A stretch of DNA of 64,000 bases, from assembly GCA_963815095.1 (NCBI GenBank), contig CAWFFH010000003.1:1376001-1440000 (forward strand), given 5' to 3'. The stretch comes from Candidatus Bathyarchaeota archaeon. Lineage in GTDB: Archaea > Thermoproteota > Bathyarchaeia > Bathyarchaeales > Bathycorpusculaceae. Under the pieces are notes generated by a model. It ran no database searches and was not told the origin of the DNA. It saw only the letters and a list, made by a program, of their open reading frames with translations. How positions within the stretch are numbered: position 1 is the first letter of the stretch; the number at the start of each line of letters is the position of its first letter. This document shows, piece after piece, positions 2,135 through 25,205 of the stretch. The position numbers were made by a program, and so were the translations under genes.

Positions 2135-2874
2135 TACTCTTCCTCACCAAAGTTGAACCGCTTACCCAAGTAAACCTTCACAACGTTCTCGTCGCAAACC
2201 ACTGTTTTTGGATCTCCTTCACAGATTTTTTCGCCATGATTCAACACAATAACATGGCTACATAATCCCATAATTACCCGCATGACGTGCTCAACGATGA
2301 GCACTGTTACTCCTTGCTTGTTGATTTGCTTGATTATTTCAATAGCTTCGTCAGATTCCTTGGGTGTAAGACCAGTAAGCAACTCATCAAGCAGAAGCAT
2401 TTTAGGATTCGTAGCCAACGCTTTCGCAAGCTGAATACGACGCAATTCAACAACGTTTAATTTTTTTGCAGGCAAATCAAACTTTTCTTTACCCAAACCA
2501 ACAAAACCCAAAAGCTCCTGCGCCCTAGGTAACGCCTCAGTTTTGCCAGTATATTTTTTCTCGTTGAACAGCACACTTGTTAATACGTTTTCCGTCGCGG
2601 TCATTTCGGGAAAAGACTGAACGGTTTGGGCAGTTTTGGTGATGCCCTTGGCGCAGATTTTGTAGGGCGGAAGTTTTGCAATGTTTTCTTCATTGAAGAG
2701 AATTTGTCCAGAATCGGGCTTATACACGCCACTGATGAGGTTTAACAGTGTAGATTTTCCTGAGCCGTTGGGTCCAACAAGCCCAGCTATCTCACCGTCG
2801 GCTATTGAGAAGTCAACGTTTTTTAATGCTTGAAGTCCGCCAAACCGTTTGGAAACCTCGATGCACTTTAGCAA
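2134..2874 (-). CDS. livG: Branched-chain amino acid ABC transporter ATPase (LivG-like)
   Basis: FGGLQAL, GPNGSGKST, LLLDE, IVEHVM, C-terminal VYLG; ABC signature is degenerate. Confidence 0.85.
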   Translation of the reverse strand: MLKCIEVSKRFGGLQALKNVDFSIADGEIAGLVGPNGSGKSTLLNLISGVYKPDSGQILFNEENIAKLPPYKICAKGITKTAQTVQSFPEMTATENVLTSVLFNEKKYTGKTEALPRAQELLGFVGLGKEKFDLPAKKLNVVELRRIQLAKALATNPKMLLLDELLTGLTPKESDEAIEIIKQINKQGVTVLIVEHVMRVIMGLCSHVIVLNHGEKICEGDPKTVVCDENVVKVYLGKRFNFGEEE

Positions 2875-2981
2875 ACTTGCGCACTCCGAATAGCAAGCAA
2901 TTATTCAAGTGCAAATATAAAGGTTGGTGGAAATGACATTTTCCTGAAATTTTGGTTAAAGTTAAATATTAACGGAAACTA

Positions 2982-3449
2982 TTGGACTGTTGGTGTAATT
3001 GTTTGCCTATAACGCAAGTAAGCGTGTTTCTTGATAATCATCCAGGTTCTCTTTTTGAAACCATGTCGCAGCTGGACAAGAACAAAATCAAAGTCTTCGC
3101 CTTATCCATCGCAGACGCCGGCGAGTTTGGCTTGGTTAGATTGATAACTGAAGACCCAGAGAAAGCCAAACGTCTCTTGGAGGATGCAGAGTTTAACCTT
3201 GCAAAATCAAAAAAGAACACCGAAGTCACAGCTATTTTCATATCTGAACAAAATACGATTTCGAATATAACCAAGATTTTGGGTGACGGCGGCATAAACA
3301 TTGAGTATGCTTATTCTTCAGCGGTGCACGTTGAAGGGAAGGTTGCTTTGATTCTGCGTCCTAGTAATGTTGAGCAGGCAGAGCAAATGTTAGCTGCAAA
3401 CGGCGTTGCTGTTCTCTCGCTTGGGGAAATCAAAAAATACTTCCAATAA
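2982..3449 (+). CDS. Tandem ACT-domain protein
   Basis: QVSVFLDNHPGSL, ALSIADAGEFGLVRLI, INIEYAYS; this family is typically found next to paaK; start uncertain. Confidence 0.8.
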   Translation: MDCWCNCLPITQVSVFLDNHPGSLFETMSQLDKNKIKVFALSIADAGEFGLVRLITEDPEKAKRLLEDAEFNLAKSKKNTEVTAIFISEQNTISNITKILGDGGINIEYAYSSAVHVEGKVALILRPSNVEQAEQMLAANGVAVLSLGEIKKYFQ

Positions 3450-3602
3450 CTACCTTTTTGTAATATATTTTTGTTCATACCCTATAATTCAGTAACGACA
3501 GTTTTTTTCGCTTAGTATGGGCATATATTCACAGAATAATGATTCTGAGACAATAAGCTTTAATTTGTGGCGTTTGCACGACCCTAAGCAGAGGTCAAAT
3601 TA

Positions 3603-6425
3603 ATGGTTACCACAAACCTTGACAAAATTTTCAATCCTCAAAGCGTAGCCATCATCGGAGCCAGTGATGTTGAAGGCTCAGTTGGATATGCTATAGTAAA
3701 AAATTTTACTCAGATGGGCTACACCGGCAAAGTTTATTTTGTTAACTTTCGAAAACCAGAGATTTTAGGTGTAAAAACTTACCCGACAGTTGACCAGATT
3801 CCTGAACCTGTTGACTTAGTAATCATTGCTACCCCCGCCAAAACCGTCCCAGACGTCATGGAGGAATGTGGCAAAGCACAGGTGAAAGGCGCAATAATTG
3901 TTTCTGCAGGCTTCAAAGAAACAGGTCCAGCAGGCAAAGCTTTAGAAGAAAAAATTCTTGAAGCATCCAAAAAATACGGAATCAGAATTATCGGTCCAAA
4001 CTGCATTGGAATTATCCGACCCCGAAATAACCTTAACGCAACCTTCCTTGATAAGATGCCTAAGGCTGGCAACGTAGCTTTCCTCTCCCAAAGCGGCGCC
4101 TTAGGTTCCGCAATCCTTGACTGGGCACTCCACGAAAACATCGGCTTTAGCAACTTCGTCTCAGTCGGATCCATGCTTGACGTGGACTTTGGCGATTTAA
4201 TTGATTATTTTGGTTCTGACCCAAAAACAAAAAGCATCCTCATGTACGTTGAAGGCATAACTGAAGCCCGCAAATTCATGAGCGCCGCAAGACACTTTGC
4301 ACGAACCAAACCAATCATAGTTGTTAAGTCAGGCAAATTTTCCGAAAGCGCAAAAGCTGCTGCTTCTCACACAGGTTCCCTTTCAGGGGAAGACAGCATT
4401 TATGATGCAGCATTCAAACGCGCCGGCATTGTACGCGTTAGCGAAATAGCTGACCTGTTTAATTCAGCTGAAGTTTTAGGCACACAACCGTTGCCTAAAG
4501 GTCCAAGACTTGCCATAATAACTAATGCAGGCGGACCTGGCGTAATGGCAACTGACTCACTTATTGGACAAGGCGGCAAACTGGCAAAACTAAGCCAAAA
4601 AACACTAGACTCTCTCAACGCTGTTTTGCCTCCATTCTGGAGCCACGGCAACCCCATCGACGTTTTAGGAGACGCCAAATCTGAACGGTATAAAGCAGCC
4701 GTTGAAGCATGCCTAAACGACGACAACATCGATGGCATCATGATTATTTTCACTCAACAAGCCGTTTCAGAATCAGTAGAAATAGCAAAGAACATCGTTG
4801 AATTAGTACGCAGCAAATCCTACCAAAACAAAACAATACTTACATCATTTATGGGATTTGGCGCAGTCCAAGAAGCCAATAACATTCTAAACGCAAACAA
4901 CATCCCCACTTACACAACACCCGAACAAGCCATTCGAACCTACATGTACATGTACAATTACAACCGCAACATAGACCTCCTCTACGAAACCCCCGAAGAA
5001 CTCCCAGTAGATGCAGCACCACCAAAACGCCCCATAATGGCAATTCTAAGAAACGCAGCATTTGAAGACCGCGAAATCTTAACCGAGGACGAAGCCAAAA
5101 AAATACTCAAATACTATAATTTCCCAGTCGTCAAAACCGAAGTTGCCAACACCGTTGACGAAGCAATAGCGTACTCTCAGGAAATGGGGTTCCCAGTTGT
5201 CCTAAAGATCTTGTCACCTCAAATCATCCATAAAAGCGATGCAGGCGGAGTAATCTTAAACGTTAATTCACCCACCGAAGTCCGCGAAGCCTTCGATCTT
5301 CTAATTCAAAGAGCAAACGCATACAACCCCAGCGCACAAATAATCGGCGTAACTGTTCAACCCATGATTGAAAAGAAAGGTCACGAACTCATCATCGGAG
5401 GAAAAACCGACCCCGTCTTTGGTCCAGTAATTCTCTTCGGTATGGGTGGAGTCGGCGTGGAACTCTTCAAAGACTACTCAATTGGACTTCCACCACTAAA
5501 CACAACCCTCATCCACCGCATGATGGACGAAACCAAAGTTTACCGCTTACTCAAAGGATGGCGTAACGCACCCGCGGTGAACCTCAAAAAACTCGATGAA
5601 ACAGTGCTCATGTTTTCTCAGCTGCTAGTTGATTTCCCCCAGATAAAAGAAATTGACATAAACCCATTGCTAATTAACGAAAAAGACGCTACCGTCCTTG
5701 ATGCTCGAATAGTCGTTGATAAGGATAAAGTTTGCAGGAAATTTGAGCCCCACGAACACATGGTTATCAGCCCGTACCCCAAAAAATACGAGGTACTGTG
5801 GTTACTCAAGAACGGTCAAGAAGTTCTCTTGCGCCCCATAAAACCTGAAGATGAACCCATGTGGCTTGAGATGTTCCAGAGCTTCTCAGAAGAAGCAATT
5901 CGCTACCGTTTCTTCCAAATGCTAAAAGATACACCGCATGAAGTCCGCGTCCGCTACTGCAACATTGACTACGACCGAGAAATCGCTATCGTCGCAGAAA
6001 TGGTGGATAATGGTAAAAGAAAAATCCTCGGTGTTACCCGACTCAGTCTTGAATCCGACGAAAAGAGTAGCGAAATGGCTTTCATTGTAAGCGACTATTG
6101 GCAGGGTTTAGGTTTAGGCACCAAAATGGTTGATTACGTGCTTGACATCGCCAAAGAGAAAGGCATGGAAAAGGTTCACGCAATCATATTACAAGACAAC
6201 TACCGCGCATTGAGCTTGACAAAGAAGATGGGCTTCAAAATCGAATACCTAACAGACGGCACCGTCAAAGCAACACTTGACCTAAAAGATGAAGACCTAG
6301 ACTTTCGATGTGCACAACTAAAACTGCCCGAGCCACCTCAAACAAAACAAGAAAAGAAACCGGAAGTAAAAGTTTCTGAAAGCAAAAAAGCAATCCGCGA
6401 GCCGCCAGAAGCGGCACCCGCTTAA
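3603..6425 (+). CDS. ADP-forming acyl-CoA synthetase alpha-beta fusion with C-terminal GNAT domain (Pat-type acetyltransferase architecture)
   Basis: CoA-binding IIGAS, GPNCIG, SQSGA, SHTGS, TNAGGPG, NPIDVLGD, ATP-grasp HKSDAGGV, DINPL, then GNAT RPIKPED...WQGLGLG. Confidence 0.9.
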   Translation: MVTTNLDKIFNPQSVAIIGASDVEGSVGYAIVKNFTQMGYTGKVYFVNFRKPEILGVKTYPTVDQIPEPVDLVIIATPAKTVPDVMEECGKAQVKGAIIVSAGFKETGPAGKALEEKILEASKKYGIRIIGPNCIGIIRPRNNLNATFLDKMPKAGNVAFLSQSGALGSAILDWALHENIGFSNFVSVGSMLDVDFGDLIDYFGSDPKTKSILMYVEGITEARKFMSAARHFARTKPIIVVKSGKFSESAKAAASHTGSLSGEDSIYDAAFKRAGIVRVSEIADLFNSAEVLGTQPLPKGPRLAIITNAGGPGVMATDSLIGQGGKLAKLSQKTLDSLNAVLPPFWSHGNPIDVLGDAKSERYKAAVEACLNDDNIDGIMIIFTQQAVSESVEIAKNIVELVRSKSYQNKTILTSFMGFGAVQEANNILNANNIPTYTTPEQAIRTYMYMYNYNRNIDLLYETPEELPVDAAPPKRPIMAILRNAAFEDREILTEDEAKKILKYYNFPVVKTEVANTVDEAIAYSQEMGFPVVLKILSPQIIHKSDAGGVILNVNSPTEVREAFDLLIQRANAYNPSAQIIGVTVQPMIEKKGHELIIGGKTDPVFGPVILFGMGGVGVELFKDYSIGLPPLNTTLIHRMMDETKVYRLLKGWRNAPAVNLKKLDETVLMFSQLLVDFPQIKEIDINPLLINEKDATVLDARIVVDKDKVCRKFEPHEHMVISPYPKKYEVLWLLKNGQEVLLRPIKPEDEPMWLEMFQSFSEEAIRYRFFQMLKDTPHEVRVRYCNIDYDREIAIVAEMVDNGKRKILGVTRLSLESDEKSSEMAFIVSDYWQGLGLGTKMVDYVLDIAKEKGMEKVHAIILQDNYRALSLTKKMGFKIEYLTDGTVKATLDLKDEDLDFRCAQLKLPEPPQTKQEKKPEVKVSESKKAIREPPEAAPA

Positions 6426-19258: not shown

Positions 19259-19294
19259 TTATGAGTAACAGTGATTATTTCTAAGTTAGAGAAT

Positions 19295-20112
19295 ATGAAA
19301 CCAAAGATAACACTACTCAGCTCAGTGCTTATTTTATTTTTATTAGTTCCCTCAATATCTGCAACACAAATTACTAATGTTGCACCTACACCATATACAA
19401 CTTACCACAAAGGTGACCTATACACTACTGTTTATTTTCCAAGTGAAATAACTCCACCAAATGGAACAAAACCACCAAAAATAGAAATCACATCTATGTT
19501 TAACTGTTCTGTAATAGCTTCAAATAATCTACCTTAACTTTTAATTTGACTTTGGTTTCACCAACCGCTTTTTATTCTATTATTCTTCAAGGGGTCTGTT
19601 ACAAACCAAGTTGGCAATCAGGTAATACTACTATTGACTTTGGTTCAAATAACAAGTTTTACAATAAGACGTTAGCCTTCTCAATCTCTTCTACCAATAT
19701 GACGGATGGAACAAAATCAGTTACAGTTTATGCAAGCACAATGTATGAGTTTAAAACAAGCAGAGAGAATGTTGCAGAACCAGTTAGTGGGATTAAGGGG
19801 ATTCCTCCTTATGGAAACTATCTCCATTATTCTAATTATTACTTTATAGAAGGCTCTTCCTCTGTTAACTTTATGATTGATACTTCCCCAACAGCTACAC
19901 CAAGCGTAAACAATGATTCAGGTTCAGGTTATAAAACCAACATTCTCCTGTATACAATTGGAATAATTACTCTTCTGATTGTGGCTGCTGCTTTGTTGGT
20001 TTATCACAAACGCAGAACCAAACAATTTAGTCCAGAAACCTTTACTGGACTTAGTCAAGGAAGCTGTACAAGAAGTCTTATAACGAAAACTCTTCCAACA
20101 ATAAAGTGGTAG
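19295..20112 (+). pseudogene. Surface/Ig-like protein gene split by a frameshift near 19530
   Basis: Signal peptide in the first ORF, TM anchor LLVYHKRR in the second; one extra base restores ...SNNL-TLTFNLTLVSP. Confidence 0.65.
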
Positions 20113-20114
20113 CT

Positions 20115-21614
20115 ATGAGTAAAACTATAGCTTTAGCAATTGTTTTGGTCTTTCTAACAGCATCAAGCATAATTACCTTTTTGCCGGCCAAAGCTGAAAC
20201 TAAAGCCATCATTGTTCCAGATGATTACCCAACTATATCTGATGCATTGATTGCTGCTGCCGACGGTGACACCATATGTGTGAAGAAAGGAACCTACAAG
20301 GAGGGTACATTGGTGATAAACAAAACAGTGACCCTTATAGGCGAAGACCCAAAAACAACCATAATACAAGACCCCTGGTTAACTCCTCATTGGGACCCCT
20401 CTTCATCACCTTTTCCTCCACCAAAACCCACCACCATACAAGTTAAAGCAGACGATACGACGATTTCAGGATTTACTATCACAGGCAACGCTATTCCTCT
20501 AAGCATTCTTGCTAACAGAGTTCAAGTCATTGCCAGCATCATGGATAGTATTGAAGTGTATGGCAACAATAATACCATCAGCCAAAACAGCATAAAAACA
20601 TACGTCAAATGCGATGGTTCGTACAACAACTTTCTAAGTAATCCAATGATTGGCGGAGGGTACGACGGCTTTTTAGTTAATGGAGATTTTAACGTAATTT
20701 ACAACAATAGACTTTCGGGTTGTTCCATTGAAGTGAGGGCAAAAAATAATACCATAGCAAAGAACAGCGGTTATTTCTCTCTAAGCTTAACCAAGAGTTC
20801 TTCAAATAACGTAGTTTTAGGCAACCGAATAAGTGGAGACTTACTTCTGATGGGGTTCAACAATACTTTCTATGCAAACGAGATTACTTATGTGGGAATA
20901 GGTGGATTTCACGGTGGCACCACGGATGCGGCATATAATAGTTTTTTCCAAAATAACTTTGTTGGCAAAGCACCTGAATTTTCAGTTAGCACTAAAAATC
21001 CTGGTACTCTCTTTTGGAATAACGGTGGAAAAGGGAACTATTGGCGTAGTTTCAATGGCACCGACTCAGATACCGACGGGGTAGGAGACACAACCTACCA
21101 AGTATATGCCGAGTACCACTATTTTGATGGCGCCATTCGTGAAGATACAACCGTTTCTTTGGGTCAGGACAAATATCCACTCTTGTTAGCTTTTGAAATT
21201 GATAGCGTAAAATTTGATAAGTCCAAAATTACAATCCCTGTAGTTGTGTCAGAGTCGTTGTTAACTGTTCTTTCGCCTCAAAATAATAAAACCTACAATG
21301 TGAAAGATGTATCGCTTAATTTTTCAATATCTCAACTGGCTAAATTGGTAAGGTATAGTTTGGATGAACAAGATAATGTTACGGTCGCTGGTAACTTTAC
21401 GCTTACCGATTTAGCTAATGGTGTACATAATATAACATTTTATGCCGATGACCCGTTTGGGAATACCCAAGCATCAGGAATAATTGTTTTCAATGTAGAA
21501 GTTCAAGCGTCTTTTCCTGTTGTTCTTAGGTTCGCTGTTTCTGTTGGAGTAGTCGCCTTGGCGGTTGCTGGTTTGTTGGTATACTACAAAAAACACAAGA
21601 CGAAAACAGCTTGA
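20115..21614 (+). CDS. NosD-like beta-helix plus Ig-like surface protein with C-terminal TM anchor
   Basis: IIVPDDYPTI, GNYWRSF..DSDTDGVGDT, YSLD, GVHNITFYA, GLLVYYKKHK. Confidence 0.82.
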   Translation: MSKTIALAIVLVFLTASSIITFLPAKAETKAIIVPDDYPTISDALIAAADGDTICVKKGTYKEGTLVINKTVTLIGEDPKTTIIQDPWLTPHWDPSSSPFPPPKPTTIQVKADDTTISGFTITGNAIPLSILANRVQVIASIMDSIEVYGNNNTISQNSIKTYVKCDGSYNNFLSNPMIGGGYDGFLVNGDFNVIYNNRLSGCSIEVRAKNNTIAKNSGYFSLSLTKSSSNNVVLGNRISGDLLLMGFNNTFYANEITYVGIGGFHGGTTDAAYNSFFQNNFVGKAPEFSVSTKNPGTLFWNNGGKGNYWRSFNGTDSDTDGVGDTTYQVYAEYHYFDGAIREDTTVSLGQDKYPLLLAFEIDSVKFDKSKITIPVVVSESLLTVLSPQNNKTYNVKDVSLNFSISQLAKLVRYSLDEQDNVTVAGNFTLTDLANGVHNITFYADDPFGNTQASGIIVFNVEVQASFPVVLRFAVSVGVVALAVAGLLVYYKKHKTKTA

Positions 21615-21627
21615 TACTTATTGGGTG

Positions 21628-21666
21628 GCTGTTCTTTTTGGGGAACACTGTGTTCCTCTGGGAGAG
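21628..21666 (+). repeat. Intergenic element, copy 2
   Basis: gctgttctttttggggaacactgtgttcctctgggagag. Confidence 0.6.
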
Positions 21667-21705
21667 CTAAAAGTCAGATTGTTGCATACACAATTAGGGT
21701 TAATC

Positions 21706-22605
21706 ATGAATCGTCAGTCAAGCAGGGTAACCGTGTTTGCGGTGGTTCTTTTGGGTTTACTGTTGATTGGGCTCCAACCTGTTTTAGGTAGCACTGTGGG
21801 TCCAGTTTACCTCTCTGACTACATCACCGTCTACAGCCCCGTCAACACAACCTACAACACCAAAAACATCCTCTTCAACTACACTGTTGGCGTCGGCATA
21901 GGCATGCACATTTCCCTAAATTACACCCTGGACGGAACCCTAGCAGACGCCATGCCCTTCACAGTCATAAACCCAAACGAGCTGCACGTGATGTATTTAG
22001 CGCGTGGTCAAGTACAGTTGCCCGAGTTATCAGAGGGACAACATACTTTGACAATTGCATACTATACAGACTTTAACTTCTACAAAGATGCACATTCTTA
22101 CGTGGACACAATTCATTTTACCGTCGACTCAGCGGCACCCGACGTTGTTTTAGATGCAACCCCACCCAACATAACCATACTAACACCTAAAACAAACCAA
22201 ACCTATGCAGGCGCAGTCCTGTTAAATGTGCTCCTAAGCGAACTAACCACACCATTTACAGTAAACATAGACGGAAACAGAACCATAACTCTGCCAGCGC
22301 AAAACACCACTCTAACCGACTTAACTGTAGGCAAACATAGCCTCTCCATTAAAGCAAACGACCTTGTAGGAAACCGAGGGTACTCAAACAGAGTCAGTTT
22401 TTACGTGACTCAACCCACGTCAACACATACGCCAACCCCAACGCTTACACCAACTCCAATGCATACACCAACCCCAACGCCTATAATCCCAACAAGTAGC
22501 TTCAATTCGCAATTAATGCTTCCAATAATTGCGGTTGTAGTTTTAGCCGTTGTAATTATCTCTTTGTTGCTTTTTAGACTATATGAAAGACGAGTGAGAA
22601 AGTAA
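21706..22605 (+). CDS. Ig-like-domain surface protein with Pro/Thr linker; last 8 residues are encoded by the IS110 left end
   Basis: Signal peptide, YSPVNTTY, LSEGQHTL, PPNITIL, PTPT linker, TM; original tail RHRKTISQNQPNV* lies at 23853-23894. Confidence 0.82.
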   Translation: MNRQSSRVTVFAVVLLGLLLIGLQPVLGSTVGPVYLSDYITVYSPVNTTYNTKNILFNYTVGVGIGMHISLNYTLDGTLADAMPFTVINPNELHVMYLARGQVQLPELSEGQHTLTIAYYTDFNFYKDAHSYVDTIHFTVDSAAPDVVLDATPPNITILTPKTNQTYAGAVLLNVLLSELTTPFTVNIDGNRTITLPAQNTTLTDLTVGKHSLSIKANDLVGNRGYSNRVSFYVTQPTSTHTPTPTLTPTPMHTPTPTPIIPTSSFNSQLMLPIIAVVVLAVVIISLLLFRLYERRVRK

Positions 22606-22731
22606 CTCTTGCTGGCTAGTCCGGTGCCTTCTTGGCCCTTGCGGCCGATTTTTAGACTGGGCTTGACCTGAGCTGCTATAGAACTGGGCATTCGCCCGTA
22701 TGAGAGATTGCAGCCTGAAAGCCAGCAGGAG
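22606..22731 (+). ncRNA. Putative IS110 bridge RNA with target-binding and donor-binding loops
   Basis: Outer stem CTCTTGCTGGCT/AGCCAGCAGGAG. Loop 1: AGTCCGGT..ACTGGGCT with guides tgccttct and tttttaga. Loop 2: GCTGC..GCAGC with guides tatagaact and atgagaga. Confidence 0.75.
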
Positions 22732-22742
22732 AAAGAAAAAAA

Positions 22743-23789
22743 ATGGTGAGATATGTAGGAGTAGATGTTGGCAAAGCCAAATGCAGAGCAGCAATAATGA
22801 ATCAAACCGGCGCCATCGAGAGCGAATTCTTCTTTGAAAACAACACTAAAGGAATAGAGTCTTTGACGTCTATGCTAACTGTTGAGGATCAGGTTGTTAT
22901 GGAATCTACAGGGAATTTGTGGCTAAGCATATACGATGCATTGGATAATAGAAGCATTAAGGTAGTGCTGGCTAATCCATTGAAGACTAAAGTGATAGCT
23001 TCAGCGAAAATAAAAACTGATAAGGTGGATGCTAGGATTTTGGCGCATTTGCTGAGAGCTGATCTTGTTGCTGAAAGCTATGTTCCGCAAGGAAGCATAC
23101 GTGAAATGCGAGGTTTAGTTAGGCATAGGCTGAGCTTGGTTAGAATGCGCACGGCTATAAAGAACAAGGCACATGCAATCGTTGACAAGTATAGTTATCG
23201 TTGTGAATTCTCAGATATGTTCGGTAAAGGTGGAATTGCTTGGATGAGGTCACTGATACTTAATGAGCTTGATAGACTGATTTTGGAAAACCATCTTTCG
23301 CTGATTGAATCTATTAACTTGCAGGTCGGGATGGTGGATAAAGCTATTCGAAAAATCGCTTGTGAGGATGAGGATGTTCGGTTGCTACTTAGCTTGACTG
23401 GTGTTGATGTTTATGGTGCATTGTTGATTCATAGTGAAATTGGTCCGATAACGCGGTTTAGTAGTTATAAGAAGTTGATTTCTTGGGCTGGTTTGGCTCC
23501 GTCGGTGCATCAATCTGGGAATGTTGAGTATACTGGTAGGATTACTAAGCGTGGTTCTAGCTTGTTGAGGTGGGTTATGGTTGAGGCTGCGAGGACTGCT
23601 GTGCAGTATGATGAGAAATTGGCTGGGTTTTATGAGCGTGTGAGGGCTAGGCGTGGTGATCAGAAGGCTGCTGTTGCTGTTGCTTGTAAGATGCTTAAGA
23701 TTGTTTGGTTCATGCTAAGTAGGCGTGAGGTCTATAGCTGTGCTAATACGAGGCGTTATGGAGAAAAGCTAAAAAAGATTGGTGCGTAG
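22743..23789 (+). CDS. IS110 recombinase/transposase
   Basis: DEDD motifs YVGVDVGK, VMESTG, KTDKVDA; C-terminal WAGLAPSVHQSG, ITKRGS. Confidence 0.95.
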   Translation: MVRYVGVDVGKAKCRAAIMNQTGAIESEFFFENNTKGIESLTSMLTVEDQVVMESTGNLWLSIYDALDNRSIKVVLANPLKTKVIASAKIKTDKVDARILAHLLRADLVAESYVPQGSIREMRGLVRHRLSLVRMRTAIKNKAHAIVDKYSYRCEFSDMFGKGGIAWMRSLILNELDRLILENHLSLIESINLQVGMVDKAIRKIACEDEDVRLLLSLTGVDVYGALLIHSEIGPITRFSSYKKLISWAGLAPSVHQSGNVEYTGRITKRGSSLLRWVMVEAARTAVQYDEKLAGFYERVRARRGDQKAAVAVACKMLKIVWFMLSRREVYSCANTRRYGEKLKKIGA

Positions 23790-24209
23790 TTTGGTTTACT
23801 GGCTTTCAGGATAAGTTGGTCGCTGGCTTAGAGAACCGTCTTTCATGAGAGAAGGCATCGAAAAACAATCTCTCAAAACCAACCCAACGTTTAAAAAAAA
23901 GCATAAACTAAATTTTAAAGGAAAAGTTTGATAAACTCAACTTTCTTTGTATTGAAAAAACATCTAAGGATATTTTTAATTAAAAACTTTAGTTCTTTCT
24001 TTCTGTGTTTGTCTGTCTTGTGTGTGCTAAAGGAGAGAGAGAGAGTAGTAGTAAAAGTAGTTAGATGAAAGAAGTAGTCAATAGTAGTTAGTTAGAAGCA
24101 TAGGGGAAAAAGACTAAAATTTTATCCTTCAATAGTCTTTTGTTTTATTAAGAAGAAAATAAACATTATTAGATTTTTTCAATTAAACTGCTTTTAAAAT
24201 TCGACCTGG

Positions 24210-25205
24210 TTATTTTGCTTTGGAAGGTTGTTTGGGCGATTTGTAGAAGAGCAAAGGCAAAGCAACCAGAGGCAGCGCCAGCATCCATAAGTCCATGTTG
24301 TGCCCAAGGAACCACGCATACCAATCATTCCATACATTGCCCGCAAAGAAGACCCAACTGAAATAGTTCCATAAAAAATACAATCCAAGCGCAAGCAATA
24401 TGACGCCGATTGCTTGGTGTTTGAGGTCTTCCAAGTTTTCCACGTGGACAGATTTCTTGGTGATGTAGCCAGAGTATATTGCCAACGCTAGTAAGCCGAA
24501 CGCTGTTGTGATAAAACTTACCAAGTGTTCCGGGTGGGGAATTAGTTGTTCTACTCCGTTGACTTGCATGGGTACAACCCAAAGATATTCGATTCCTTTG
24601 GTTCTAATGATACCTACCCATATGCTTGTATTAATCAACCAGAAAACAACAATGTAGAGTGTACTAGTGATAAGTCCCCACTTCACAGGCGCCTTTAGAG
24701 ATTTGTTGGGGTTTAACTTGAAAGCAAAGACGAACAGGATGATTGGGAGAACTATTGCTTCCATTACACTTGGAATAACGCCCAAAAACAACGAATTTAA
24801 CAAGTTAATTAACGATCGGCCATGAGCAAGCGTCTGATCAAAGCTTTGAACAGTATAGCCTGTGGTTGCGCTAAGACCCAACCAATAAATTCCCTCAAAA
24901 ACCAAAACAACTCGCAGAACTGTGTACATTGTGGGTTTTGAAAGCTTCTTTTGAGAAAAGTAAGCGATGATAGCTGCGAGAGCTATAATGCTGGCTGCAA
25001 ACCTGAAAACCAGGCCGACGGTTGCAAAGATATCTTCCGTTAAAATCATGGTTCCAAAGGAGCCACCTCCAAGGCGGTTCCATTCACCAATCCATGAGAG
25101 CGTAAACATTGCGTGCAAAGTGAATAAGAAATATGCAACAATAACTGTTAGTAATCCTAATTTTATTGGCGTGACGAATTTCTGCTCTGCCATAGAATCA
25201 ACCAA
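24210..25205 (-). CDS. Polytopic membrane protein, function unknown
   Basis: About 8 hydrophobic segments. Confidence 0.7.
   Translation of the reverse strand: MVDSMAEQKFVTPIKLGLLTVIVAYFLFTLHAMFTLSWIGEWNRLGGGSFGTMILTEDIFATVGLVFRFAASIIALAAIIAYFSQKKLSKPTMYTVLRVVLVFEGIYWLGLSATTGYTVQSFDQTLAHGRSLINLLNSLFLGVIPSVMEAIVLPIILFVFAFKLNPNKSLKAPVKWGLITSTLYIVVFWLINTSIWVGIIRTKGIEYLWVVPMQVNGVEQLIPHPEHLVSFITTAFGLLALAIYSGYITKKSVHVENLEDLKHQAIGVILLALGLYFLWNYFSWVFFAGNVWNDWYAWFLGHNMDLWMLALPLVALPLLFYKSPKQPSKAK

Follow-up and report, generated by a model that had tools for sequence, protein, structure and literature searches.

Within the 64,000-nucleotide (nt) window analysed here (positions 1,376,001 to 1,440,000 of contig CAWFFH010000003.1, in assembly GCA_963815095.1 of a Candidatus Bathyarchaeota archaeon), positions 22578-23851 are likely to be an active or recently active insertion sequence (IS) of the IS110 family, guided by a bridge RNA, that targets the membrane-anchor tails of surface-protein genes and is tolerated there. 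In the mechanism we propose, an RNA from the left end of the element would pair through loop 1 with the target and through loop 2 with the element's own ends, and the site would be chosen because the guides of this RNA match a target that encodes L-F-R-R. Translation of the interrupted gene would then run on for 8 codons into the element, across the terminal bases, the inverted repeat and a spacer of 18 nt, to give LYERRVRK followed by a TAA stop codon. Only the 9-13-residue cytoplasmic tail would be swapped, for one of similar charge, so that the protein probably still anchors in the membrane and the insertion looks tolerated.

Four near-identical copies occupy one short target

The analysed genome (hereafter G000; 9 contigs, 2.69 Mb, G+C ~41-42%) carries four copies of the element, which differ from one another by 0-1 nt in pairwise comparison. 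The window copy comprises the following features.

22578..23851, + strand: IS110-family insertion sequence, 1,274 bp including the right-hand AG core; limits from the junction alignment of the four genomic copies.
22743..23789, + strand: transposase (recombinase) gene, 348 amino acids, from Pfam and PDB matches; frame open in all four copies.
22583..22591, + strand: left subterminal inverted repeat ATGAAAGAC, set 5 nt in from the element's end; reads as the reverse complement of 23838-23846.
23838..23846, + strand: right subterminal inverted repeat GTCTTTCAT, the perfect 9-bp partner of the left repeat, 5 nt inside the end.

The AG core lies at 22576-77 and is repeated at 23850-51. The same dinucleotide stands on either side of all four copies, whose flanks invariably read TTTTTAG on the left and AAGGC on the right, and there is no longer target duplication. 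The transposase matched the Pfam families DEDD_Tnp_IS110 (PF01548, 4.8e-28, residues 5-150) and Transposase_20 (PF02371, 7.4e-22, residues 213-298) and, against PDB, the IS621 transposase (E-value 6.1e-15); in a plasmid protein search its best match was haloarchaeal, 46.8% identical and generically labelled 'IS110 family transposase'. Both its domains and its site-specific insertion at a short core thus assign the element, as far as sequence goes, to the IS110 family of DEDD transposase elements. Non-coding DNA makes up 165 nt at the left end (22578-22742) and 62 nt at the right (23790-23851). Among the relatives of the element, the TATGAAA of the left repeat is invariant across 13, and the right terminus ...CTTTCATGAG(A/T)G is kept.

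The four copies sit as follows, with the break in the host frame marked by a hyphen.

Copy A, window 22578-23851, + strand: in a frame of 342 open codons, broken at ...LLLFR-RHRKTISQNQPNV-stop.
Copy B, C3:1060826-1062099: in a frame of 416 open codons, broken at ...LLLFR-RHRKLVELRKLEN-stop.
Copy C, C4:83627-84900: in a 16-codon frame, ...LSLFR-RHRKNR-stop, downstream of a gene.
Copy D, C4:1392-2665, - strand: in a frame of 459 open codons, broken at ...LLLFR-RRKTVSLSK-stop.

Three of the four copies therefore lie on the L-F-R-R codons just past the membrane helix of a long intact frame, which bears out the position that the preliminary description of this DNA had given for the target. In another genome (G075, locus L103), the short frame entered by copy C is found uninterrupted and followed by the same right flank. 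All copies are co-oriented with the host frame, and LYERRVRK-stop is read from each of the four. The ectodomains of the long frames are unrelated: protein A has weak immunoglobulin-like (Ig-like) matches only, protein B weak NosD-type and Ig-like matches, and protein D a NosD β-helix (9.1e-17).

The target site sequence is TTTTTAGAAGGC, within which the 12-mer TTTTT-AG-AAGGC encodes (L)FRR at the membrane/cytoplasm boundary. Insertion at the 12-mer exceeds chance, because all four copies are found there and the genome holds a single other exact copy; of five exact 12-mers, four are occupied. When the target is extended to a 13-mer, no exact site is empty, and eight sites with one mismatch and 130 with two remain. 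The one empty exact 12-mer, itself a one-mismatch 13-mer site, lies on the opposite strand at codon 110 of a 195-codon frame. The harmless perfect sites are all taken and the harmful one is not, because no exact 13-mer is empty and the sole empty 12-mer is mid-gene.

Two degenerate or near-cognate tail sites, at G000:C1:164466 and C4:5474 (minus strand), depart from the 13-mer at two positions. One contains in-frame stops (FFRRH-stop-KAISQN-stop-PNV-stop), which marks it as the decayed form of a gene A-like tail. Beside copy B, a convergent 503-codon frame on the minus strand (G000:C3:1062154), which also ends in a helix and basic tail (QRRHRLPMHQCI), stops ~54 bp past the right end of the element.

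A predicted two-loop RNA at the left end matches target and element

The left non-coding end is predicted to encode an RNA with two internal loops, each of which carries two guide-like segments.

22606..22731, + strand: putative bridge RNA, an outer stem around two stem-loops, each with an internal loop; from the minimum-energy fold and the consensus fold.
22625..22632, + strand: loop 1, 5' side, UGCCUUCU; complements the top strand of core and right target (AGAAGGCA), being the reverse complement of AG+AAGGCA.
22649..22657, + strand: loop 1, 3' side, UUUUUAG + AC; the sense of left target, core and the element's first two bases, pairing with the bottom strand.
22677..22684, + strand: loop 2, 5' side, UAUAGAAC; UAUAG (22677-81) complements element bases 2-6 (CTATA).
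22699..22709, + strand: loop 2, 3' side, UAUGAGAGAUU; AUGAGAG (22700-06) equals the element's last 7 bases including the core.

The minimum-energy fold of the left end has -54.3 kcal/mol (z = -2.68), and its outer stem pairs 22606-22617 with 22720-22731. A consensus fold of 13 sequences retains 28 pairs, 8 of them with compensatory changes in which both sides are altered. Loop 1 matches the TTTTT-AG-AAGGC 12-mer, and this agreement between guide and flank extends to the relatives: all 14 elements have the left-flank word at left-end nt 70-76, and 10 of the 12 with a known right flank have its reverse complement at nt 47-51, so that the agreement spans ~10 different targets. As read from the alignment of relatives, the 5' side of loop 2 co-varies with the left end (UAAGG with CCTTA, UAAAG with CTTTA and UAAAC with GTTTA), and relatives whose core is TG have AUGAGUG in loop 2 and ...ATGAGTG at the right end. 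A two-loop non-coding end with target match, end match and covariation combines the features that define a bridge RNA or seekRNA in the portions of PMC11208160, PMC11208158 and PMC11187229 considered here, and on these features we classify the left end as such an RNA, which would be made and used as in IS621. Purely as an idea, the terminal repeat T(A/T)TGAAAG, ~25 nt ahead of the RNA, could also act as an archaeal TATA box.

Insertion exchanges one short basic tail for another

The gene interrupted by the window copy, gene A, encodes a putative surface protein whose last residues come from the element.

21706..22605, + strand: surface-protein gene A, interrupted allele; signal-peptide-like start (MNRQSSRVTVFAVVLLG...), Thr/Pro linker, C-terminal membrane helix, ends LLLFR-LYERRVRK-stop.
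22513..22575, + strand: codons of the C-terminal membrane helix, LMLPIIAVVVLAVVIISLLLF; from sequence and translation.
22571..22577, + strand: left target half and core, TTTTT + AG; codons (C)TT TTT AG(A) for L-F-R, the same in all four copies and equal to the 3' guide of loop 1.
22579..22605, + strand: replacement tail LYERRVRK + TAA, element-encoded in the frame of the host gene, CTA TAT GAA AGA CGA GTG AGA AAG TAA.
23852..23894, + strand: right target half (AAGGCA) and displaced native tail, which continues the frame as (R)RHRKTISQNQPNV + TAA.

The open frame of gene A spans 346 codons (21565-22605), with Met48 as the probable ATG start at 21706, and its matches to Big_13, Ca_tandemer and OmpL47-type domains (Ig-like) are weak, all below the cut-off. 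The codon AGA at 22576-22578 precedes the element-encoded codons, and the product ends ...ISLLLFR-LYERRVRK-stop, exactly the inserted allele of the preliminary description. That description also gave an empty allele; for gene A this is a reconstruction, and 6 of 30 sampled 12-mer sites in the genus are comparable uninterrupted anchor tails, ending frames of 304-483 codons with LLLFR-RH(R/Q)K... in other species. The left end does supply a basic tail, as had been proposed: RLYERRVRK holds five lysines or arginines (K/R) and one glutamate in 9 residues, and native tails hold 4-6 K/R in 10-14. The stop codon was said to lie directly before the RNA stem, which is true of the minimum-energy fold, where the stop ends at 22605 and the stem begins one base later at 22606, and untrue of the stem conserved over 13 relatives, which starts at 22610.

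Precise excision is a trait of the IS110 family in the portions of PMC11208160 considered here, and the targets are surface proteins, so one may ask whether insertion and precise excision reversibly toggle the tail or expression of a surface protein, as in phase variation. Contigs of four of the 20 public runs listed yielded no joint across the element at locus A and hence no empty allele, a weak test as contigs drop rare variants, and a phenotype of the tail is an assumption of this scenario, which we regard as highly improbable. One public-run contig (X3) runs from the right end of the element into flanking DNA, and contigs of two other studies hold right ends with 96-98% identity beside RHRK-type flanks, which show presence only.

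The anchors themselves appear mobile on a longer timescale. Compared over window positions 21706-22578, the closest homologues of protein A, in two other species (L132 and L133; 72% and 76% identity), have other anchors and tails, and an in-genome paralogue with 72% identity (G000:C3:448367-449119) has another helix and tail; the endings include ...KKLKRR-stop and ...RKKRSG-stop. Because such close homologues end in different helices and tails, the anchor module is not inherited with the ectodomain, and surface-protein genes exchange their C-terminal anchors. No NCBIfam sorting-domain model (PGF-CTERM and the like) matched proteins A, B or D or the neighbour gene at an E-value of 0.05 or below, with queries that bore the element-derived tail, and no sorting-signal model from Pfam matched the target proteins.

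Gene A closes an array of several secreted-protein genes that run head to tail on the + strand at 19271-22605 of the window. The last three (19546-20112; 20106-21614, NosD-like β-helix; gene A) end in a helix and basic tail, and among these gene A alone has the LLLFRR junction.

A remnant and an off-target copy point to tolerance at gene ends

Among 120 genomes of the genus, the left end was found in G000 and G044 only. In G044, which is another species, an intact 402-codon frame with four Kelch motifs (Kelch_1, 4.1e-33) ends AALLLFR-LYERRVRK-stop and is followed by nt 1-92 of the element alone (94.6% identity), beyond which the DNA is unrelated; the remnant has no further element sequence within 1.5 kb. 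The 27 tail-coding nt carry a single change, which is synonymous (CGA to AGA), and the other 65 nt carry four. We read this, from sequence, as a dead remnant that has left its tail as the end of a still-open gene. The preliminary description had called the insertion nearly neutral, and the intact G044 frame and the similar charge of the two tails speak for this; the conservation of the native tail, taken up below, speaks against it.

A copy outside G000, 97.6% identical and with an identical loop 1, lies on the metagenome contig L130 at a site that matches the target by half, with one mismatch on the left and poor agreement on the right. It entered a non-membrane frame in the same phase, 3 codons short of the stop, which suggests that the surviving insertions are those that land at gene ends. 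Both extreme ends of contig L130 resemble sequencing adapters and are untrustworthy.

The target belongs to a conserved, low-copy anchor module

We counted target sites in 101 genomes of the genus, with totals summed by hand from the table. The 12-mer occurs 129 times in 68 of the 101 genomes (reversed control, 53), at 0-5 exact sites per genome. A degenerate pattern for L-F-R-R-H-R-K gave 58 sites in 37 of the 101 (control, 17), of which 22 hold the exact 12-mer and most of the rest are one base off. Across species and unrelated ectodomains, one DNA form of the LFRRHRK junction is the commonest by far. These counts identify the LFRR(H) junction as a conserved module that is kept even at synonymous sites and offers a low-copy target; its synonymous-site conservation could mean that the module has spread recently or that its DNA or RNA is itself under constraint. 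Within the genus, the 12-13-mer is the usual coding sequence for (L)FRR(H) at the anchor boundary of a few otherwise unrelated secreted proteins, and because it encodes the anchor junction the element would always enter in the orientation of the gene and in one codon phase.

The preliminary description had instead taken the target for the shared tail of a large paralogous family, a multi-copy safe harbour whose copies might drive rearrangement among the genes. For this, it can be said that 236 frames of at least 100 codons in G000 end in a helix and basic tail, that unrelated ectodomains share the same junction, and that the other anchors of the closest homologues of protein A imply exchange of anchors over time. 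The 236 frames, however, are dissimilar in sequence, G000 holds five exact 12-mers and, by our reading of the listings, ~7 RHRK-type tails, and the genus genomes, as given above, are no richer in exact sites. In all four copies, moreover, the AG cores match and the joined flanks give back a short tail, the short frame of copy C is uninterrupted beside the same right flank in G075, and no hybrid junction was found, a weak test given how short and alike the tails are. A comparison of the 700-nt flanks of the four copies with the 30 sampled loci gave no BLAST match at 1e-8. The large family therefore did not materialize, no rearrangement among the genes was seen, and we consider a safe harbour of this kind quite improbable.

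Relatives share the layout and use other sites

Relatives, at 57-76% protein identity, came from this genus and from further genomes that carry the label Bathyarchaeia or Nitrososphaerota. They have the same layout and other flanks, and their loops have changed with the flanks. Both flanks were recovered for 10 relatives, which allowed their sites to be rebuilt; not one of these sites is an anchor tail. Four (L022, L026, L028 and L002) have no open frame of at least 60 codons across the site, and five (L023, L024, L025, L027 and L029) have only short frames of uncertain standing. The remaining relative (L032, ~2821-4107) is inside a 265-codon frame, which continues ...GLDV-HKDSTYATIL... and resembles, to the eye, the N-terminus of another IS110-type transposase, making this a candidate nested insertion.

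Several targets lie in or beside short inverted repeats (L002, L022 and L023, all with GAAGT-AG-TAGTC; L149 and L150, both with ...GTTGTTG). For example, the reverse complement of the target recurs ~20-30 nt downstream, a likeness to the targeting of repetitive extragenic palindromic (REP) sequences and hairpins by bacterial IS110 elements, and the same target is used in three different genomes.

Related elements had been expected at the same codon, each with an in-frame basic tail. With none of the 10 in an anchor tail, guides that are reprogrammed and an RVRK-stop spacer that is unconserved, this expectation failed. Because the sites of the relatives and the reading frames of their left ends vary, the anchor-tail habit appears limited to this one lineage, and site, frame and left-end frame vary in the family at large.

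Is the tail an adaptation to the host gene?

In phase 1 of the left end, every one of the 14 elements yields x-Y-E-R/K from its inverted repeat alone, whatever the target. The rest of the tail, RVRK-stop, comes from the 18-nt spacer, which is unconserved among relatives. Read in the same phase, the left ends of the relatives give tails of 10-34 residues with a net charge of -1 to +4, and none of the 13 combines a length of at most 12 residues with a net charge of at least +3. We simulated the left end with the repeat fixed and the spacer either randomised at genome-like composition (20,000 trials) or replaced by shuffles of its own sequence. A tail of at most 10 residues with a net charge of at least +3 arose in 0.135% of random spacers and 0.575% of own-spacer shuffles, figures that are suggestive only, as the criterion was set post hoc, after the tail was known. 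A stop within 10 codons arose in 26-39% of simulated spacers.

Two other readings of these data treat the basic residues as incidental. In the first, everything is a by-product and a matter of survivorship: the guide matches a coding 12-mer by chance, the basic tail and stop come from a purine-rich left end with Y-E-R fixed by the inverted repeat, nothing is adapted, and the insertions are young and mildly harmful or neutral. The copies are indeed at most 1 nt apart and hence recent, x-Y-E-R/K is encoded irrespective of target, and a stop within 10 codons is common in simulation; the 97.6% copy at a half-matching site near a gene end (L130) and the mid-gene position of the sole empty exact site would likewise be expected if survivors were simply those near gene ends. 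What speaks against it is that a tail both short and of net charge at least +3 is rare in simulation (0.1-0.6%) and absent from all 13 relatives, and that the peptide is preserved in the G044 remnant, where the one change in the tail codons is synonymous, against 4 changes in the other 65 nt. On balance we hold this explanation to be unlikely.

In the second reading, the stop serves the element. The TAA would prevent ribosomes from running into the bridge RNA, transcripts that read through from the promoter of the surface-protein gene would supply RNA and transposase, and the basic residues would be incidental. The stop at 22605 directly ahead of the stem at 22606 fits this, as do the shared orientation of all copies with the host frame and the behaviour of relatives outside genes, where the same phase stays open for 10-34 codons and often enters the RNA. 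This reading leaves the charge of the tail unexplained, however, and the conserved stem begins only at 22610. As the sole account of the tail this is improbable; as an account of the stop it is compatible with adaptation of the tail and with our preferred explanation.

That the spacer was shaped by selection, so that the tail is adapted to the host gene, is plausible, with chances that we put somewhat below even. A fuller version is more tentative still, namely that the left end has evolved a 'prosthetic' stop-transfer tail of eight codons and a stop, that the element can thereby take the coding 3' end of the anchor module for its natural landing site, that decayed copies leave C-termini behind as in G044, and that the lineage takes part in anchor turnover and is intermediate between IS110 and IS1111.

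Evidence that weighs against a guided and tolerated insertion

Several observations count against our preferred reading of a bridge-RNA-guided element that is tolerated in anchor tails. On the RNA side, Rfam 15 gave no family at an E-value of 1 or below on the left end when 22000-24500 was scanned, the sole match in that interval being a chance-level sR28 (E-value 0.3) inside the transposase gene. None of the public runs listed as containing the stretch is an RNA run, so that the ends and expression of the RNA are deduced. In two of the 12 relatives the right-flank match is poor (L025, one mismatch by eye; L026, no match). On the side of tolerance, the copies are at most 1 nt apart, too young for selection to have removed an insertion that is mildly harmful. 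The tail-swapped proteins probably still anchor, and their function is presumed. G044 is a single case in a metagenome-assembled genome, where a misjoin in a repeat is possible, and is weak for that reason. The native RHRKT... tail is conserved across species even at synonymous sites and may do more than carry charge, so that exchanging it may not be strictly neutral. The post hoc criterion of the simulation belongs here as well.

Comparison with known systems

The element would work in the manner of IS621 and ISEc21-type elements. It shares with the IS621/IS110 group, as described in portions of Durrant et al. 2024 (PMC11208160) and Hiraizumi et al. 2024 (PMC11208158), a DEDD/serine recombinase with the same pair of Pfam domains, a long non-coding end that precedes the transposase gene, and a dinucleotide core on both sides with no target duplication beyond the core. 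It differs from IS621 in its core, which is AG (TG in some relatives) and not CT, and from the group in its archaeal host and in a target within coding sequence. The order of the guides is also reversed. In the IS621 loops the bottom-strand guides (left target guide, LTG, and left donor guide, LDG) lie on the 5' side and the top-strand guides (right target guide, RTG, and right donor guide, RDG) on the 3' side, according to the sections of PMC11208158 that treat them, whereas here the 5' sides complement the top strand and the 3' sides carry its sense. If target and donor were both read on the other strand, the geometry of the loops would equal that of IS621, and the same chemistry may therefore operate with the cargo turned round relative to the crossover site.

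In the portions of PMC11208160 considered here, subterminal inverted repeats are 2-3 bp in the IS110 group and 7-17 bp in IS1111 elements, and the element has a perfect repeat of 9 bp. Further traits shared with the IS1111/seekRNA elements, to judge from parts of Siddiquee et al. 2024 (PMC11187229), are the presence of subterminal repeats itself, a top-strand complement lying 5' of the matching segment, and natural reprogramming of the guides among close relatives; in those elements, however, the RNA usually lies downstream of the transposase gene, and here it lies upstream (22606-22731 against 22743-23789). On these partial accounts, the element appears to mix traits that separate the IS110 and IS1111 groups, with the RNA upstream, an IS1111-type guide order and 9-bp repeats. 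This mixed design would bear on how the two groups relate, and the relatives would provide an archaeal guide set of ~10 natural targets within one genus.

Most known bridge-RNA elements come from bacteria, and intergenic repeats make up the bulk of the targets that they use in nature. The portions of Durrant et al. (PMC11208160) considered here mention archaea in general terms only, and describe IS110 members that target REP sequences. The REP-targeting elements ISPpu9 and ISPpu10 likewise use a short multi-copy sequence where insertion does little harm. The repeated sequence used here differs in being coding, at the anchor-tail junction, so that the element must supply a stop and a tail. A full-text literature search, judged by titles and the openings of abstracts and with supplementary tables apart, found no published IS110-family element with a coding anchor-tail target and no Bathyarchaeia bridge RNA.

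Elements that integrate at gene ends are a further near parallel in concept. Some integrating elements enter the 3' end of transfer RNA or protein genes and bring a substitute for the end that they displace, and for Tn7 the recognised gene end is the conserved terminus of glmS; these systems use tyrosine or serine integrases, or TnsD in the case of Tn7, and no RNA guide. If our reading is correct, an RNA-guided IS can live inside genes cheaply, much as such integrators rebuild the gene ends that they enter, and its dead copies could donate new C-termini to host proteins. In both cases a conserved gene end is a safe landing site and the end of the element restores a usable terminus. The gene-end integrators usually restore the same sequence, whereas the element described here restores a different peptide of similar charge, and, unlike Tn7, which inserts downstream of its gene, it lies within the gene.

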